Origin: Patescibacteria group bacterium
GTDB lineage: Bacteria; Patescibacteriota; Patescibacteriia; Patescibacteriales; UBA12465
DNA: 64,000 nt
Direction: 5' to 3'
Assembly: GCA_041658665.1 (NCBI GenBank)
Contig: JBAZZR010000002.1
Coordinates: 9,147 to 73,146, forward strand
Shown here: positions 44,769-55,986 of the stretch, piece after piece
Layout: each line of letters opens with the position of its first letter
How positions within the stretch are numbered: the stretch's first letter is position 1
The notes under the pieces: model-generated
Databases searched by the model: none
Told to the model about the DNA's origin: nothing
Seen by the model: only the letters and a program-made list of their open reading frames with translations
Translations under genes and position numbers: made by a program

Positions 44769-46274
44769 ATGTTAAATCTAAAAAGATATTATTATTTCAG
44801 CTTCGTTCTCCTGGCCTTATTTTTTTTAGGGGTGCCAGAGGCCGGGCGCGCTCAATTAGAAATTGATCCTAATTTTAATCCCGATAATATAATTACGGAC
44901 CGAGAGATGCTTAGTTATGATGCGATGAGTCTTGGCGATATTCAGAGATTTCTTGAAAATAAAGGTAGTTACTTGGCTAATTATTCGACTCTCAACACAC
45001 ACGGCGATCAAAAAACGGCCGCCGAAATAATTTATGACGCGACTCATAATAATTATGATTGCGATGACGCTATTTTAAGCGATAGCCCGACGGAAAACGA
45101 AAAAAAACTTAAATGTCAAAAAATAACAACGATTAATCCCAAGGCGCTATTAGTCCTCCTGCAAAAAGAAGAAAGTTTAATTGAAGACAGTAATCCGCCC
45201 CAAAGTCATCTCGATTGGGCTACTGGTTATTTTATTTACGATGGCATGCTAACTTGCACGCCTTATGACCGGTGTTGGAGATATAAAGGTTTTGGTAAAC
45301 AAGTTAACAGCGCCGCTCTCCAGTTTCTCGCTTACATGCAACAGCCTACTCGCTATAATTACCGCGCCGGCCAAACTTACTCTATAAGTAGTACAGTCCA
45401 GCCCTACTTAACAACGGCTAACCAGACAATGCTCGTTACTCCCCAAAACCAAGCCACGGCCGCTTTATATAATTACACTCCTCACGTCTTTAATGGCAAC
45501 TATAATTTTTATAAGCTGTGGAACCGCTATTTTCCTAAATCCTCTCAAATCTATCCCGACGGTTCTCTGTTACAAGCTAGAGGAAACCCGGGAGTCTGGT
45601 TAATTGAAAACGGTAAAAAAAGAGGCTTCACTAATTACTCGGCCTTTGTTTCCCGCTTTAAACCAAGTCAAATTGTTAAAGTAGAAGTAAATGACTTAGA
45701 TTATTATGCTACTGGCGAACCGATCCGATTCGCTAACTATTCTCTAGTTCAGACCCCGGACAAAAAAATCTATCTCTTAGTCGACAAAGAAAAAAGGCTT
45801 TTCGCGGACCAAACGGTCTTTAAAAAATTTGGTTTTAACCCCGTTGAAATTGAAAATGCCGCTCCGGAAGATCTAGTTGATTACAAAATCGGCAAAACTA
45901 TTACCGCTACTTCGACCTATGTGACCGGCGTCTTACTTCAAGATAGTAAAAACGGTTCTATTTATTATGTCGAAGATAAAACTAAAGCCGCGGTTGATAA
46001 AATTCTCCTAACCACTAAATATGTAGGGAAAAAGATCCTTAAAAAAACCACTAAAGAATTAGAGACTTACAAGACGATAGCGCCGGTTCTCCTCGATGAG
46101 GGCCAACTTGCTAAAACTGATAACTTTCCGACTATTTATTTAATTTCGGGTGGCAGAAAAAGACCTTTCGCTGATGACCAGACTTTTAATAGATTAGGTT
46201 ATAATCCAAAAAATGTTATTACGGCTTCATCGCAATTTCTTTATAACTATGATATGGGGGAAACGATTAAATAA
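44769..46274 (+). CDS. secreted protein, function unknown
   Basis: 501-aa ORF with an N-terminal signal-like helix. Terminator downstream. Confidence 0.5.
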   Translation: MLNLKRYYYFSFVLLALFFLGVPEAGRAQLEIDPNFNPDNIITDREMLSYDAMSLGDIQRFLENKGSYLANYSTLNTHGDQKTAAEIIYDATHNNYDCDDAILSDSPTENEKKLKCQKITTINPKALLVLLQKEESLIEDSNPPQSHLDWATGYFIYDGMLTCTPYDRCWRYKGFGKQVNSAALQFLAYMQQPTRYNYRAGQTYSISSTVQPYLTTANQTMLVTPQNQATAALYNYTPHVFNGNYNFYKLWNRYFPKSSQIYPDGSLLQARGNPGVWLIENGKKRGFTNYSAFVSRFKPSQIVKVEVNDLDYYATGEPIRFANYSLVQTPDKKIYLLVDKEKRLFADQTVFKKFGFNPVEIENAAPEDLVDYKIGKTITATSTYVTGVLLQDSKNGSIYYVEDKTKAAVDKILLTTKYVGKKILKKTTKELETYKTIAPVLLDEGQLAKTDNFPTIYLISGGRKRPFADDQTFNRLGYNPKNVITASSQFLYNYDMGETIK

Positions 46275-46466: not shown

Positions 46467-47267
46467 ATGCCACTGCTCATTAGCGCCTTATTACCCCATT
46501 CGCCTCTTTTAATCCCGGAAATCGGCCGGGCTAATTATGATTTTCTCGCTAAAACCGTAGCGGCCTATCAAGAAATAGAAACTGAACTAAAAACTCAGGA
46601 AATAAATACTCTGATTATTATCAGCCCGCATGGCCTTAAACAAGAAACGGCTTTTACTTTAAATGTCGCTCCCGAAATGTCTATTAATCTCCAGGACTTT
46701 GGCTTCATCCCGCCTAAAACTATTTTTAACGGCGATGCCCTCTTAGCCGATCAAATTCAAAAAACCCTAAGACCAGATTTCAGCCTCCAACTAATTTCCG
46801 AAGAAATCTTAGACTACGGCAGCGCCATTCCCTTATATCTATTTAAAAGCTTACTAAATAAAATAAAAATAATTACTATTTATCCGGCCAGCGATCTTAA
46901 CGACGAAACACAGTTTAAATTCGGCCAAGCCCTAAAAATAGTTTTAGAAAACAGCGATAAAAAAATCGCCCTGATTGCTTCGGGCGACCTGTCACATCGT
47001 CTGAAAAAAAAATCACCGGGCGGCTACTCGCCCAAAGGCGCTAAATTCGATAATAAATTAATTGAATTTCTCAGCGTCGCTGAAACGGCGGCCGAAAATA
47101 TCCTAACAATGGACACTAAACTAATAAAAGACGCGGGCGAATGCGGTTTACATCCTCTATTAATTTTACTAGGCGCTATCACAAGCCGAACTCGACAATC
47201 TCAGCTCCTAGCCTATCAAACTGATTTTGGTATCGGTTATTTAAGCTTCAACTTTAAACTCAATTAA
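46467..47267 (+). CDS. class III extradiol dioxygenase subunit B-like (LigB/MEMO-type) protein
   Basis: N-terminal LLPHSPLLIPEIG, IIISPHG and ASGDLSHRL motifs, typical of the LigB-like fold. Confidence 0.55.
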   Translation: MPLLISALLPHSPLLIPEIGRANYDFLAKTVAAYQEIETELKTQEINTLIIISPHGLKQETAFTLNVAPEMSINLQDFGFIPPKTIFNGDALLADQIQKTLRPDFSLQLISEEILDYGSAIPLYLFKSLLNKIKIITIYPASDLNDETQFKFGQALKIVLENSDKKIALIASGDLSHRLKKKSPGGYSPKGAKFDNKLIEFLSVAETAAENILTMDTKLIKDAGECGLHPLLILLGAITSRTRQSQLLAYQTDFGIGYLSFNFKLN

Positions 47268-47276
47268 AATAAATTC

Positions 47277-47537
47277 ATGTCGGATACTTTCCAGTCTTTT
47301 TCAGACATCATAAAAAATAAAAAAAATTGCCCCGCGCCGGCCTATCCCTGGCAAGATCTCGCGCTCCGAGTCATTAAAGAATTATCTATTCCTGGCTTCA
47401 AACGTAGCGCGATTTTTAAAGTTTGCAAAGAAAAAACTAGTCAACAAATCGAAATTGCTCTAACTGATACTAAAGAATTATGTTTGAGCGGCAGTAAATG
47501 GCAATATTTCTTTAAAATCATCGATCAAAAAAAATAA
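47277..47537 (+). CDS. small hypothetical protein
   Basis: 86-aa ORF tightly packed between neighbouring genes. Confidence 0.4.
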   Translation: MSDTFQSFSDIIKNKKNCPAPAYPWQDLALRVIKELSIPGFKRSAIFKVCKEKTSQQIEIALTDTKELCLSGSKWQYFFKIIDQKK

Positions 47538-49054: not shown

Positions 49055-49126
49055 GGTCCCTTCGTCTAACGGTTAGGACGCCAGGTTCTCATCCTGGTAA
49101 CAGGGGTTCGATTCCCCTAGGGACTA
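49055..49126 (+). tRNA. tRNA-Glu (anticodon CTC)
   Basis: Acceptor GGTCCCT/AGGGACT, anticodon arm CCAGG-TTCTCAT-CCTGG, T-arm AGGGG-TTCGATT-CCCCT. Confidence 0.9.
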
Positions 49127-49170
49127 CTATTGGGGAACTAGCGTGTGCCAGTTCTCTTTTCGTTTGTAGA

Positions 49171-49264: not shown

Positions 49265-49849
49265 TTAATTATTAATTTCAACATCTACCAAGCTATACGG
49301 AATCCCCTGTTCTTTAACTAAAGACTTAATTTTCTTTTGTTCCTGGCTATACATTTCTTGGAAAGTGGCAAAACCTCCTTGCACCAATCTTTTGTTGCGA
49401 TGAAGGGCCCAAACCGGGTGCACTCGCTCCTTGTGGGTCGAGCGCTCTTCTATCGCCTCTTCAGTAACGATCGGGACAAAGACGAAAGTCGGCAGATTTT
49501 TTAATTTATTAATGATTTTCTCGTACTGAGCTATCATGTCAGGACTGGATGAGACAGTAAAAATGGCGTAGGAGATATGGAATCGATTAAGTATAAAAAC
49601 CGCGTTGCTGTCATCGCGAAGAATTTTTTCACAATAATTTAAAAAGTGCTCATAAAAATTAAGCCTGATCGCATCGATATCTTCGATCCAAGCGTGTTTC
49701 CAGGTAAACAAAAGTTCTTCTTCATAATAATCATATATTGTCTTACCGGACAGCATTCCTTCAATTTGCTTTTGGAGAGTATTTTTTCCTGCACCGGCGA
49801 TTCCTTCAATTATAAATAATCTAGCGGCTGGCAATGATGTAATTTTCAT
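49265..49849 (-). CDS. P-loop NTPase, (deoxy)nucleoside/nucleotide-kinase-like
   Basis: Walker A FIIEGIAGAGKNTL near the N-terminus; size and layout resemble the dNK/dTMP-kinase fold. Confidence 0.55.
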   Translation of the reverse strand: MKITSLPAARLFIIEGIAGAGKNTLQKQIEGMLSGKTIYDYYEEELLFTWKHAWIEDIDAIRLNFYEHFLNYCEKILRDDSNAVFILNRFHISYAIFTVSSSPDMIAQYEKIINKLKNLPTFVFVPIVTEEAIEERSTHKERVHPVWALHRNKRLVQGGFATFQEMYSQEQKKIKSLVKEQGIPYSLVDVEINN

Positions 49850-49859
49850 ATCGAATAAA

Positions 49860-50975
49860 TTATTTACTCAAATTCTTATAAATTATTTCACCGTCATCCT
49901 TAATTTCAAAAATTCCCACCTCTCCCTCCGGTAGGTAATATAAATTAATTGTTCTTTTTTCGCCCGGGATGGTTTCATATTTGTCATGATCAATTGTTTG
50001 TCCTCCGAACAGACGCAACTTAGCTTTTCCCGATTCATCGAAATCTAAAAAGTTTATTCCCGCCGCCAAAGTTTCACGCGAAACATGCATGTGCCCACAA
50101 GCAACGTAAATATCTGCCTTTGCTGGTAGCCGGCGACATAGCTCCATAAGATATTTACTTACAGGCAAAAACTGTTTGTAGGGGACTCTTTCTGAATCTG
50201 GCAAATTAGCTTGTTTAACTTGTTTTTCATAAACTCCAGGTTTTTTTGGGCCTTTAAACGGAGTCTCGTGAGCAAAAATCAATATACTCTTTTTATCTTT
50301 ATTCAATTGAGCAAAATCATCAATGGTTTTTTCTAAACTATTAGTTTGTTCGGCATTCTTTTCGTCAACTTTAAATGAAGGCCAAAAAATAACGGAGGTC
50401 TTATCATCTAAAGGCAAATTCAAAGGCTTATCATAAGAATCCACTCCGGCTTCTTTTAACAATTCTTGTGTCGCTTCTAGTTTCTGAGGGAAGGGTCTAT
50501 CAGCATTTCCCATAATATGGCGAACATCACTTTTCAATTCTGAAAGTCGGCTGGTTACATCTTTAATAGATTGTCTCATGTCTGCCATTGCTTGATCTAA
50601 TTCGCCTCTACTTTTTGCCATCCATAAAGCATAAACGGCAATATCTTGTTCCATTCCTATATTTTTTTGTTGCTCCTTAAAAATATGATATTCTGGAGAT
50701 TCTATAATTTTAATATATTCCTCAACCTCCAATGATAGTTTATCCGTCTTTTTTTCTTTGTCATAACGTAAAGCCAGGCCCTTTGCTTCTTTAACATACT
50801 CAGAAAGTATTCCGCTACCCGCTAAATCCCCAATATGAACTATAAAGTCTAAATTCTCTCCGTGATTTTTTAAAGGCTCTAGGGCTTCATCGAGTTGTTG
50901 CCCTTTTCTTCCTTGGGTATCAGAAATAATGCCGAAACGGTAATTTTGATTCCCCATTTTATCAGGATTCATCAT
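49860..50975 (-). CDS. atypical calcineurin-type metallophosphoesterase with a ~100-aa helical insertion
   Basis: Motifs ISDTQG, HIGDLAGSG, GNADRP, FAHETP and ACGHMHV. Confidence 0.7.
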   Translation of the reverse strand: MMNPDKMGNQNYRFGIISDTQGRKGQQLDEALEPLKNHGENLDFIVHIGDLAGSGILSEYVKEAKGLALRYDKEKKTDKLSLEVEEYIKIIESPEYHIFKEQQKNIGMEQDIAVYALWMAKSRGELDQAMADMRQSIKDVTSRLSELKSDVRHIMGNADRPFPQKLEATQELLKEAGVDSYDKPLNLPLDDKTSVIFWPSFKVDEKNAEQTNSLEKTIDDFAQLNKDKKSILIFAHETPFKGPKKPGVYEKQVKQANLPDSERVPYKQFLPVSKYLMELCRRLPAKADIYVACGHMHVSRETLAAGINFLDFDESGKAKLRLFGGQTIDHDKYETIPGEKRTINLYYLPEGEVGIFEIKDDGEIIYKNLSK

Positions 50976-51063
50976 ACATTTATTTACATTATTTATCCCT
51001 TATTTTACATTTATAATAGCAAAAATTGACCTTTTTTGCAATATTTTTGATTTTTTACATAAT

Positions 51064-51199
51064 TCAATAAGTCTTAATAATTTCCGCCCATCTCCCAATC
51101 TCCTTAACCATCCCCTCAAAATTTTGAGAAATTTCAGACTTTAAGACTACCAATAAAAAAGCGGCAGTAATTTTACTCCGCTTTTTGTGTTAATTTTCC
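51064..51199. repeat. cassette junction element U1 (70-nt core 51081-51150 plus hairpin 51161-51181 plus T-run)
   Basis: Core is 56/70 identical to U2 and 57/70 to U3 (hand count). The hairpin gcggcagtaattttactccgc is flanked by A6 and T5. Shares the tgttaatttt tail with U3. Confidence 0.85.
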
Positions 51200-52121: not shown

Positions 52122-52859
52122 ATGAATAATTTTGGAAACTTTAGCAAACTAGAAAAAAATTATAAATTTATTAGACCTAGTTATCCGACCAGGGTAATTA
52201 GAGATATTTATTATCTCATCAAAACTCCGCATCCAATTATTTTGGATTTGGGATGCGGCACTGGAATTTCTACTCGACAAATGGCAAAAAAGAACTCAAG
52301 AATATTTGGCTGCGATATTGATGAAAAGATGTTTGCTAACGCTTCCAAGGATAAAAATATTACATATATTAAAGGTAGCGCGGAGAAACTCCCCTTTCCG
52401 GACAAAACCTTCGACCTTATAACTATGTTTGCCGCTTTCCACTGGTTTTCGAACAAAAAAGCAATAAATGAGATGCGTAGAGTTTTAAAACCAAAAGGAG
52501 CTATATATATAGTACAACAAAAACATACATCACCTTTCAGTCATGACCATAAAGAAATAATCAGTAAAGTGTTAGGAGCCACTATAAAAACAAAATATAG
52601 CAAAAGAAAATTTGAAGATGTTCTGGCACAAAATAATTTCGAAATCATTGAAAACAAAATCTATAAAACTATTAATAAATATACCTTAGGACAATTTCTT
52701 AAACTGTTGCAATCTTATAGTATTTGGAATGAAGTCCCAGTCTCAAAACGCAAACAAATTATAAAATTGTTCAAAAGTCACTTTAGAACAATGCTGAAAA
52801 ACGGCTTAATTCACGATGCAGCTGACCTTTATTTAATTTGTGCTAAACCAAACCTTTAA
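52122..52859 (+). CDS. class I SAM-dependent methyltransferase
   Basis: ILDLGCGTG motif I, FDLITMFAAFHWF, and LKPKGAIYIV post-II region. Confidence 0.85.
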   Translation: MNNFGNFSKLEKNYKFIRPSYPTRVIRDIYYLIKTPHPIILDLGCGTGISTRQMAKKNSRIFGCDIDEKMFANASKDKNITYIKGSAEKLPFPDKTFDLITMFAAFHWFSNKKAINEMRRVLKPKGAIYIVQQKHTSPFSHDHKEIISKVLGATIKTKYSKRKFEDVLAQNNFEIIENKIYKTINKYTLGQFLKLLQSYSIWNEVPVSKRKQIIKLFKSHFRTMLKNGLIHDAADLYLICAKPNL

Positions 52860-53017: not shown

Positions 53018-53521
53018 CTAATTTTTTAAATTAAAATCTAATACTTCCTGCACTTTATTTTCTAATTTATTAAAAACATTTTTTAGATGCGATCCCTTGA
53101 CCTGCACAGTCTTGGTCGGAATAACTGGACTGAACAATAACCAATCCTGCTCATAAATTTTGGGGTCGACATAAATATTATATTGAGAGTCGAAACCGAA
53201 CGGGTAAGCACAGCCAGGCTGTGCTCCAAAATGTTTATTCAACTCTTCGGGAGAACAAAGCTTAAGTTTTTTAACGCCTAATTTTTCTTTAATAACTTCA
53301 AAATTAATCTTCTGTCCATGCAAGGTAATATAAACAATCATACTGTCATCGGCTTTTAAAACTAAACACTTCATTTCTGTCCCGATGAAACCCGTTTCTT
53401 TCTGCACCTTGGCTAACTCCTCATAAGTTAAAGCCTCCCTATGAGAAAAGAGTTTATAATCGACACGACTATTATTAAGGAGATTTATTAGTTTTTCATA
53501 AATGTTTTTTGAGTCAGTCAT
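53018..53521 (-). CDS. YbaK/ProX-type aminoacyl-tRNA deacylase domain protein
   Basis: 167 aa with KCLVLK and GCAYPFG motifs, typical of the YbaK editing fold. Confidence 0.75.
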   Translation of the reverse strand: MTDSKNIYEKLINLLNNSRVDYKLFSHREALTYEELAKVQKETGFIGTEMKCLVLKADDSMIVYITLHGQKINFEVIKEKLGVKKLKLCSPEELNKHFGAQPGCAYPFGFDSQYNIYVDPKIYEQDWLLFSPVIPTKTVQVKGSHLKNVFNKLENKVQEVLDFNLKN

Positions 53522-55789: not shown

Positions 55790-55865
55790 GCGCCTATAGC
55801 TCAGTTGGTAGAGCAACAGCCTTTTAAGCTGATGGTCGCTGGTTCGAATCCAGCTGGGCGCACCA
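55790..55865 (+). tRNA. tRNA-Lys (anticodon TTT), CCA encoded
   Basis: Acceptor GCGCCTA/TGGGCGC, anticodon loop CTTTTAA, T-arm GCTGG-TTCGAAT-CCAGC. Confidence 0.9.
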
Positions 55866-55894: not shown

Positions 55895-55967
55895 GCCGAC
55901 TTAGCTCAGCTGGTAGAGCAGCTGTCTTGTAAACAGCAGGTCGTCGGTCCGAACCCGACAGTCGGCT
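55895..55967 (+). tRNA. tRNA-Thr (anticodon TGT) with an unusual T-loop (TCCGAAC)
   Basis: Acceptor GCCGACT/AGTCGGC, anticodon arm GCTGT-CTTGTAA-ACAGC, T-arm GTCGG-TCCGAAC-CCGAC. Confidence 0.85.
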
Positions 55968-55986
55968 CATAAACATTGATTACAGA

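Follow-up and report, generated by a model that had tools for sequence, protein, structure and literature searches.

A 64,000-nt stretch of DNA from a Patescibacteria group bacterium (UBA12465; GCA_041658665.1, contig JBAZZR010000002.1, positions 9,147–73,146 of the forward strand), hereafter the window, carries two adjacent minus-strand genes encoding a divergent calcineurin-fold metallophosphoesterase of 371 aa and a P-loop kinase of 194 aa with a thymidylate kinase/deoxynucleoside kinase (TMK/dNK) fold. The two proteins very probably form a functional pair. We tentatively predict that they constitute a small-molecule module acting on a nucleoside/nucleotide or pentose-phosphate-type substrate, a reading to which we assign a probability of about 0.4. 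The catalytic motifs of both proteins are conserved, the genes form a compact operon that is kept in the nearest relatives, and in more distant genomes both families have swapped partners. Our literature search found a description of neither family, nor of a kinase–phosphoesterase pairing between them. An earlier note on this DNA, drawn from its letters alone, had proposed a kinase–phosphoesterase module engaged in nucleic acid end healing or nucleotide processing; the module is borne out and a nucleotide-processing role is plausible, while the Pnkp/Hen1-like RNA end-healing part of that interpretation does not hold. Positions given below are window coordinates, and L-numbered loci (L001, L002 and so on) are homologous loci from other genomes.

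Re-translation of the phosphoesterase gene recovered, at their positions, all the motif strings quoted in the earlier note, which had described five calcineurin-type motifs with non-canonical residues (Table 1). These motifs are not a chance resemblance, since they are conserved across the family alignments: all are invariant in a close alignment of 15 homologues, and in a wide alignment of 25 family members, reaching down to 20% identity, no variation is seen at D19, G49-D50, G156-N157, H236-E237 and G294-H295, and almost none at H297. The seven metal-ligand positions of the superfamily (D, H, D, N, H, H, H) are kept as D19, Q21, D50, N157, H236, H295 and H297, six of the seven being canonical and Q21 the exception. 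Position 21 is Gln within the candidate phyla radiation (CPR) clade and His in most of the distant members of the family, consistent with either residue acting as a metal ligand. Two other hallmarks of the superfamily, the general-acid/phosphate-binding His (GNH[D/E]) and the motif II Arg (GDxxDR), are missing. At motif III, His is absent from every family member in the alignments, which show the variants GNAD, GNVD and GNVE.

The helical insertion between motifs II and III, estimated in the earlier note at ~100 aa, comprises five helices and ~90 aa in the AlphaFold2 model (mean pLDDT 88.2, pTM 0.87), where it lies between strand 44–49 (motif II) and strand 151–155 (motif III). Its aromatic residues Y60, Y71, Y87, F99, Y115 and W118 are conserved among the 15 close homologues. 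Sequence models recognise just the first ~50 residues of the protein: PF00149 scores 22.2 bits (cut-off 21.5) and PF12850 24.3 bits (cut-off 27; 3.4e-5), each over residues 13–64 only, and TIGR00040 (YfcE) 19.8 bits against a cut-off of 56.25. Single-sequence searches of the phosphoesterase and the kinase against PDB sequences gave nothing useful; a profile of the phosphoesterase family matched MJ0936 (1s3l, E = 0.0031) and 2kkn in the PDB. When the model was compared with the PDB using Foldseek, as the earlier note had suggested for both proteins, the best 50 matches were all metallophosphoesterases, 37 of them with E ≤ 1e-3. They include SMPDL3A, aq_1956, Rv0805, CD73, purple acid phosphatases, Mre11 and LpxH, none of them close (TM-score ≤ 0.44), and neither Pnkp nor lambda phosphatase occurs among these 50. 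By its modelled fold and the five motifs in order, the protein belongs to the calcineurin-like metallophosphoesterase superfamily.

The phosphoesterase family is rare, with 15 clusters among 5.77 billion proteins, annotated as 'hypothetical' and mostly from Patescibacteria; a profile search among 1.84 billion proteins retrieved just 32 representatives. Its members are mostly acidic (isoelectric point, pI, 5.3–5.8). Three longer proteins (P0060, P0063 and P0064) match only the C-terminal part of the family profile and contain no informative domains. The closest characterized group is YfcE/MJ0936 (PF12850, TIGR00040), which shares the calcineurin fold, the same five-motif order and a motif III without His (GNAD here, GNCD there), and which supplies the best sequence-level matches (PF12850, TIGR00040 and MJ0936 1s3l). 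Unlike these enzymes of ~160–190 aa, the 371-aa protein falls below the PF12850 and TIGR00040 cut-offs with only its N-terminal ~50 residues aligned, carries the ~90-aa helical insertion and a C-terminal beta extension, has Gln in place of His in motif I and is encoded beside different partners. It represents a new enlarged branch of YfcE/MJ0936-like metallophosphoesterases.

The P-loop protein reported 10 nt downstream of the phosphoesterase was confirmed together with its spacer, and its AlphaFold2 model (pLDDT 88.2) is that of a TMK/dNK-like kinase. Sequence models see the P-loop only: PF02223 gives 12.3 bits (cut-off 27), TIGR00041 15.3 (cut-off 83.25) and PHROG 761 'thymidylate kinase' an E-value of 7e-6. 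The closest structures found by Foldseek in the PDB are thymidylate kinases, deoxynucleoside kinases and YorR, with human TMPK at 7e-6 and a TM-score of 0.59; PFKFB3 (rank 17) and shikimate kinase come further down. Over the TMK and dNK matches in the PDB and BFVD together, the TM-score is about 0.55–0.65 and E goes down to 2.5e-6. Among the viral structures of BFVD, deoxynucleoside and dTMP kinases again come first, at 2.5e-6, and polynucleotide kinases (PNKs) take ranks 22–28 with E about 1e-4. No PNK family matched the kinase sequence at E ≤ 1, and the best 50 Foldseek matches in the PDB contain no PNK structure.

In a profile alignment to the TMK 9wd2, E43, an acidic residue after strand 2 that is invariant in the family alignment, falls on the 'EP' motif of TMK, and N88-R89 on its 'DR' motif. 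Judging from the model, an NMP-kinase-like fold (NMP, nucleoside monophosphate), Walker A, a DR-type motif after strand 3 and an Arg lid place the kinase in the TMK/dNK structural class. With TMKs and dNKs (PF02223, PF01712), its best structural matches, it shares the Walker A pattern xEGxxGxGKxT and the Arg-rich lid; it differs from them in lying far below their sequence thresholds, in belonging to a tiny family with invariant residues of its own (F48, K51, W54, H91, H139 and W147) and in standing habitually beside phosphatases. We regard it as a new small family of this class. The family numbers 18 clusters among the 5.77 billion proteins, from CPR bacteria and one Woesearchaeota (DPANN) archaeon, and because it is so small the kinase cannot be the housekeeping Tmk. 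Searches of phage genomes with tblastn returned homologues of neither the phosphoesterase nor the kinase, and a scan of IMG/VR with the kinase alignment returned none either.

The two active sites bear directly on the end-healing proposal, according to which the kinase would phosphorylate 5′-OH ends of RNA or DNA, with the phosphoesterase removing 3′- or 2′,3′-cyclic phosphates; the pair would be a counterpart of Pnkp or T4 Pnkp divided over two proteins and lacking a ligase. The phosphatase of T4 Pnkp has a HAD fold, which counts in favour of this proposal. E43 lies about 21 residues past the Walker Lys, a position that we take to fit a hydroxyl-activating base as in PNK. The viral PNKs among the fold matches of the kinase point the same way, as do RNA-related neighbours at some homologous loci (PTH2; PNPase and NYN; a THUMP methyltransferase; and, upstream of a phosphoesterase–methyltransferase fusion, a nucleotidyltransferase of the pol-beta type). 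A kinase joined to a phosphatase of interchangeable fold is, moreover, the known architecture of end-healing enzymes, and in bacterial Pnkp the phosphatase is a metallophosphoesterase (PMC3675462). Bacterial Pnkp/Hen1 thus resembles the present system in combining a P-loop kinase with a binuclear metallophosphoesterase, and some relatives of the window's phosphoesterase also carry a fused class I methyltransferase.

The residues themselves nevertheless make end healing unlikely. The CthPnkp phosphatase site (Asp187, His189, Asp233, Arg237, Asn263, His264, His323, His376 and Asp392; PMC3675462) is not reproduced in the phosphoesterase: His189 corresponds to Gln21, Arg237 of motif II has no counterpart and His264 of motif III is replaced by Ala158. 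In CthPnkp both Arg237 and His264 are essential, and His264 is described as the determinant of the 2′,3′-cyclic phosphodiesterase activity (PMC3675462). PNK and Pnkp structures are absent from the best 50 PDB matches of both models, the kinase resembles dNK/TMK more than PNK, the phosphoesterase is acidic and the fused methyltransferases are TehB/UbiG-like. Pnkp is a single kinase–phosphatase–ligase polypeptide, whereas the window has two separate open reading frames (ORFs); general library scans, run without an explicit ligase-motif scan, gave no adenylyltransferase (ligase) family match in the neighbouring ORFs. There is no Hen1-type protein and no Hen1 N-terminal activator; the only methyltransferase nearby has 245 aa, lies on the opposite strand and is of the BioC/UbiE type. 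This methyltransferase and the tRNA deacylase-fold (YbaK-like) protein are present as the earlier note had described, but they and the 244-aa orphan ORF cannot serve as supporting context, having given no tblastn matches in the related loci searched. An anti-phage role, also raised earlier, is unsupported because the PADLOC defence models produced no meaningful match to either protein.

The locus has the anatomy of a small operon. A promoter-like site precedes the phosphoesterase, and a terminator-like hairpin follows the 244-aa ORF upstream (−14.6 kcal/mol, z = −3.6, with 0 of 200 shuffles folding equally well), so that the phosphoesterase and the kinase form a two-gene unit with the 244-aa ORF outside it. 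The pair and its 10-nt spacer recur in L016/L018, with a phosphoesterase 88% and a kinase 64% identical to those of the window, and in L015, with 75% and 78%; L017 shows the same phosphoesterase–kinase junction. In L016 the gene upstream of the pair encodes a cell-wall hydrolase. The co-occurrence expected from the earlier note therefore holds for the window and its two closest sampled relatives, one small clade of three sampled lineages, and stops there: in the remaining six of the nine lineages covered on the phosphoesterase side (48–64% identical) the kinase is not alongside. The two genes of the pair have diverged discordantly in these relatives, L016 1776–3486 and L015 573–2166 differing from window 49265–50975 with identities of 88/64% and 75/78%; recombination inside the operon may be the cause, or constraints that are not the same for both genes.

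In most lineages outside this clade, the place of the kinase is taken by a different kind of phosphotransfer protein. In four of the nine lineages the gene directly after the phosphoesterase encodes a protein with a PEP-utilizers domain (PEP, phosphoenolpyruvate), the phospho-His swivel. In L001, L002 and L012 it is a standalone swivel protein of 110–124 aa followed by an orphan protein of ~350 aa, P351, with an additional swivel protein in L012; in L014 it has 371 aa and carries the swivel domain at its C-terminus. The long partners with a C-terminal swivel measure ~340–470 aa, and 336–371 aa where they follow the phosphoesterase at the loci of Table 1; their swivel bears the conserved T-x-H motif. 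P351 is a nine-member orphan family with invariant GRWP, PSxLAR and GPY motifs; no relatives were found in Pfam or the PDB, even with a profile, and the long swivel proteins do not resemble it in their N-terminal domains. The 244-aa orphan of the window was also considered as a relative of this ~350-aa partner, and no relationship was found.

The swivel partners are similar to the swivel domain at the C-terminus of rifampicin phosphotransferase, PigC and PEP-synthase-like enzymes. They have the PEP-utilizers swivel in common with split dikinases and phosphotransferases such as PEP synthase, rifampicin phosphotransferase and phenylphosphate-synthase-like two-component kinases. Unlike in those systems, neither an ATP-grasp (PPDK_N) nor a PEP-binding TIM-barrel domain was detected in the swivel-containing operons, the partners are P351 and a metallophosphoesterase, and the window has no swivel gene at all. 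The phosphoesterase might be one station of an undescribed phosphotransfer machine in which, in most lineages, it works with the free-standing swivel and P351 and dispenses with a recognisable ATP-grasp or PEP-binding domain. Loading or unloading of the swivel histidine would here fall to the metallophosphoesterase fold, the dNK-like kinase would have replaced the whole relay in the window's clade, and the interchangeable phosphatase partners of the kinase would be a mirror image of the same module. We consider such a machine improbable.

The phosphoesterase is also found fused to a C-terminal methyltransferase dependent on S-adenosylmethionine (SAM), TehB/UbiG/TPMT-like, in two separate lineages (L002, protein P0005, and L013). 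In L013 the fusion lies 5 nt downstream of an ANT(9)-like pol-beta nucleotidyltransferase gene and is followed by a second methyltransferase. Such fusions to small-molecule methyltransferases would suit the tailoring of some other small molecule (a xenobiotic, a head group or a cofactor precursor), in which kinase, methyltransferase or other tailoring enzyme and phosphatase would act with the phosphate as a transient handle. The second methyltransferase and the nucleotidyltransferase of L013 agree with this idea, as does the likeness of the swivel partners to rifampicin phosphotransferase, PigC and the PEP-synthase-like C-terminal swivel. On the other hand, no methyltransferase belongs to the window operon, the one close by is neither a conserved neighbour nor related to the fused ones, and the fold of the kinase points to nucleoside/nucleotide kinases, so that we hold tailoring of this kind to be doubtful. 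In a direct comparison of the window methyltransferase with the fused ones, similarity stopped at the SAM motif.

The kinase behaves in a reciprocal manner. Among the 11 gene copies covered on the kinase side, eight directly abut a gene of a phosphatase superfamily, representing four different folds; the phosphatase-superfamily share of these genomes is a few percent, by rough estimate rather than as a computed background. Three of these copies adjoin the phosphoesterase described here. In three others (L009, L024 and L026) the kinase is followed within 1–4 nt by a His_Phos_1-like protein of ~245 aa, from a family with near-threshold His_Phos_1 matches that we read as a divergent histidine phosphatase; its profile found no match in the PDB. 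One copy overlaps an upstream HAD_2 gene in an archaeal context (L027/L028), and one paralogue directly follows a protein resembling low-molecular-weight protein tyrosine phosphatase (LMW-PTP) with a CTGNLNRS (CX5RS) loop (L007/L008). A ninth copy (L010) belongs to a DSPc–aldo-keto reductase–ferredoxin–kinase operon, and the two remaining copies (L005 and L007a) lack a phosphatase gene alongside. Directly upstream of the kinase–His-phosphatase pair in L024 is the gene for a swivel-domain protein of 468 aa. This repeated association with other-fold phosphatases, together with the conserved pair itself, sustains the earlier note's recognition of a kinase–phosphoesterase module.

Locus L007 contains two kinase paralogues 1.5 kb apart on one contig (5001–5564 and 7042–7629; also in L008), both in the DPANN clade of the kinase tree. 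One of them overlaps the gene for a 4Fe-4S ferredoxin, with an aldo-keto reductase further upstream, and a gene for a TrmB-family regulator lies between the two on the other strand.

In a neighbour-joining tree, the three kinases linked to the phosphoesterase group as a single clade that is nested within the CPR kinases linked to His-phosphatases, which suggests that one phosphatase displaced another beside the kinase. The simplest reading would be that two analogous modules, one of kinase and His-phosphatase and the other of metallophosphoesterase and swivel/P351, recombined to give the window's pair. Reciprocal non-orthologous displacement of this type argues that kinase and phosphatase act together, with the metallophosphoesterase filling the phosphatase role. 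Homologues of the alternative partners (PEP-utilizers, P351, His-phosphatase, HAD and LMW-PTP) were not found within the 64-kb window.

A protein phospho-relay could also account for some of these contexts. In it, the phosphatases would remove phosphate from the phospho-His of the PEP-utilizers swivel protein or from the neighbouring Thr, and the kinase would phosphorylate this protein as PSRP/PDRP or HPr kinase does its own target. The swivel proteins directly after the phosphoesterase in the four lineages and directly before the kinase–His-phosphatase pair in L024 fit this scheme, and so does the failure to detect, in swivel operons, an ATP-grasp or PEP-binding domain able to charge the swivel His. 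To our knowledge, protein phosphatases occur in each of the five partner phosphatase folds, which counts in its favour as well. The fold of the kinase is, however, that of dNK/TMK and not of HPrK or PSRP, a swivel gene is absent at most kinase loci and the window lacks a PEP-utilizers gene; we judge a relay to be quite unlikely.

The partners also speak to a further objection, namely that the two genes have no functional relation and are only transcribed together in a compact genome. CPR genomes are indeed densely packed, the exact pairing is limited to one shallow clade, the L004 phosphoesterase has no evident partner, whether of kinase or swivel type, in the DNA available, and the L005 and L007a kinases stand without an adjacent phosphatase. 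Against this, phosphatases of unrelated folds, four to five in number, recur beside the kinase family, phosphotransfer proteins of two unrelated kinds recur beside the phosphoesterase family, and the 10-nt spacer is kept while the proteins diverge to 64–78% identity. We hold a chance association to be very unlikely.

From these observations we infer the catalytic activity, the reaction order and the substrate class of the pair. The two genes would constitute one small operon whose enzymes act on the same low-molecular-weight phosphometabolite. The phosphoesterase is predicted to be a binuclear-metal enzyme of the YfcE/MJ0936 type without the general-acid His, hydrolysing a phosphoester, and its helical, aromatic-rich cap probably forms the substrate pocket. 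The kinase would be ATP-dependent and phosphorylate a hydroxyl or phosphate on the product or at a related position or intermediate. The net effect would be a phosphate moved or reset, following a salvage or 'mutase-bypass' logic.

Several features favour a small-molecule substrate of the nucleoside/nucleotide or pentose-phosphate type. The nearest structures of the kinase are dTMP/deoxynucleoside kinases, those of the phosphoesterase include the nucleotide hydrolases SMPDL3A, Rv0805 and CD73, and the phosphoesterase family is acidic. In two of the operons with a kinase–His-phosphatase pair, the His-phosphatase is followed by transketolase (L026) or by Smr and a transaldolase/FSA gene (L009). 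TrmB-family regulators stand beside the kinase in two unrelated contexts. The dependence of CPR bacteria on nucleoside/pentose-bisphosphate salvage (PMC5113843) adds to this side.

Other points weigh against the small-molecule prediction. Neither family has a characterized member. Polynucleotide kinases have a Foldseek E-value just ~40-fold worse than that of dNKs, so the kinase fold is compatible with a polymer substrate. Since the pairing is limited to one small clade, it may stem from a single event. The neighbour-joining tree of the kinases carries no support values, and the His_Phos_1 matches lie near threshold (17–23 bits, cut-off 21.7). In compact genomes, transketolase and transaldolase could be neighbours by chance, and the window itself offers nothing that points to nucleoside or pentose metabolism.

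Among characterized kinase–phosphatase modules, PFKFB and T4 Pnkp resemble the pair in coupling a small P-loop kinase of NMP-kinase fold to a phosphatase that acts on the same molecule, and the kinase-then-His_Phos_1 order of L009, L024 and L026 mirrors the domain order of PFKFB. PFKFB differs in that the present enzymes are separate proteins, that the phosphatase in the window is a metallophosphoesterase and that the kinase has no 6PF2K sequence match. The pair resembles Pnkp, T4 Pnkp and PFKFB yet belongs to none of them.

Table 1. Features of the phosphoesterase–kinase locus, its surroundings and partner genes at homologous loci (window coordinates unless a locus is given).
Feature	Position	Strand	Remarks
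tRNA-Glu(CTC)	49055–49127	plus	Convergent, between fmt and the kinase gene
Kinase, P-loop, thymidylate/deoxynucleoside-kinase fold, 194 aa	49265–49849	minus	Rare CPR/DPANN family; ORF, AlphaFold2, Foldseek
Kinase lid, R136/H139/E141/R142	49424–49444	minus	Invariant in alignment
Kinase NRFH motif, N88-H91	49577–49588	minus	F90-H91 invariant, R89 nearly, N88 not
Kinase Walker A, FIIEGIAGAGKNTL (EGIAGAGKNT, E15-T24)	49778–49807	minus	Re-translated; invariant
Intercistronic spacer, 10 nt	49850–49859	minus	Same length in window, L015 and L016
Phosphoesterase, divergent calcineurin-fold metallophosphoesterase, 371 aa	49860–50975	minus	Rare family, so far mostly CPR bacteria; ORF, Pfam, AlphaFold2, Foldseek
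Motif V, G294-H295-M-H297 (ACGHMHV)	50085–50096	minus	G294/H295 invariant, H297 nearly
Motif IV, H236-E237 (FAHETP)	50265–50270	minus	Invariant
Motif III, G156-N157-A158-D159-R160 (GNADRP)	50496–50510	minus	Without His; alignments, re-translation
Five-helix insertion, ~90 aa, residues 56–145, between motifs II and III	50541–50810	minus	AlphaFold2 secondary structure, conservation
Motif II, G49-D50 (HIGDLAGSG)	50826–50831	minus	DR not following; invariant in both alignments
Motif I, D19-T-Q21 (ISDTQG)	50913–50921	minus	Gln replaces His of canonical DxH; re-translated, alignments
Promoter-like site, TTGCAA-17-TATTAT, TG-extended	51013–51041	minus	38 nt before phosphoesterase start codon; consensus match only
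Terminator-like hairpin and U-run	51155–51186	minus	After stop of upstream 244-aa ORF; upstream unit boundary
Orphan ORF, 244 aa	51190–51924	minus	No matches in Pfam, NCBIfam, PADLOC or PHROGs
Class I SAM methyltransferase, BioC/UbiE-like, 245 aa	52122–52859	plus	PF08241, 6.7e-26
YbaK/tRNA_edit-domain protein	53018–53521		PF04073, 8e-19
Swivel/P351-type partner stretches	L001 7115–8501; L002 2052–3447; L012 2334–4812; L014 3735–4850		
Phosphoesterase–methyltransferase fusions	L002 178–2049; L013 1299–3107		P0005, 623 aa (L002); 602 aa (L013)
His_Phos_1-like partners of the kinase	L009 5590–6336; L024 3624–4358; L026 3617–4357		Invariant HRHGEK (RHGE) and FSH motifs

The surroundings of the operon are heterogeneous. 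The G+C content drops to 0.315–0.316 across 51–53 kb, the lowest in the window, compared with roughly 0.35–0.45 elsewhere; this patch contains the 244-aa ORF, and the segment may be recently acquired or fast-evolving. The methyltransferase at 52122–52859 lies within the same low-GC patch and, at 2.6e-25, has a match to the methyltransferase part of PADLOC model 'mad2', probably a generic match to the SAM domain. Further away, tRNA-Lys(TTT) and tRNA-Thr(TGT) genes stand together on the plus strand (55790–55865 and 55895–55968). A 501-aa protein (44769–46274, plus strand) has an N-terminal hydrophobic segment and no Pfam match, and an 86-aa ORF (47277–47537, plus strand), likewise without a Pfam match, lies between a LigB/Memo-like gene (46467–47267) and the gene for peptide deformylase.

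CPR bacteria and DPANN archaea have minimal, salvage-dependent genomes in which many enzymes are unassigned. The present analysis ties two rare, unnamed families into one kinase–phosphatase module with repeatedly swapped partners, the kinase family standing beside phosphatases of four to five folds and the phosphoesterase family beside either a P-loop kinase or a phospho-His swivel system. It takes away a tempting but unsupported RNA-repair annotation and draws attention to an unusual trio of metallophosphoesterase, swivel-domain protein and the orphan P351; this trio and the partner swapping are the parts most worth attention. The module offers a testable handle on how these organisms manage phosphometabolites, possibly in nucleoside or pentose salvage.

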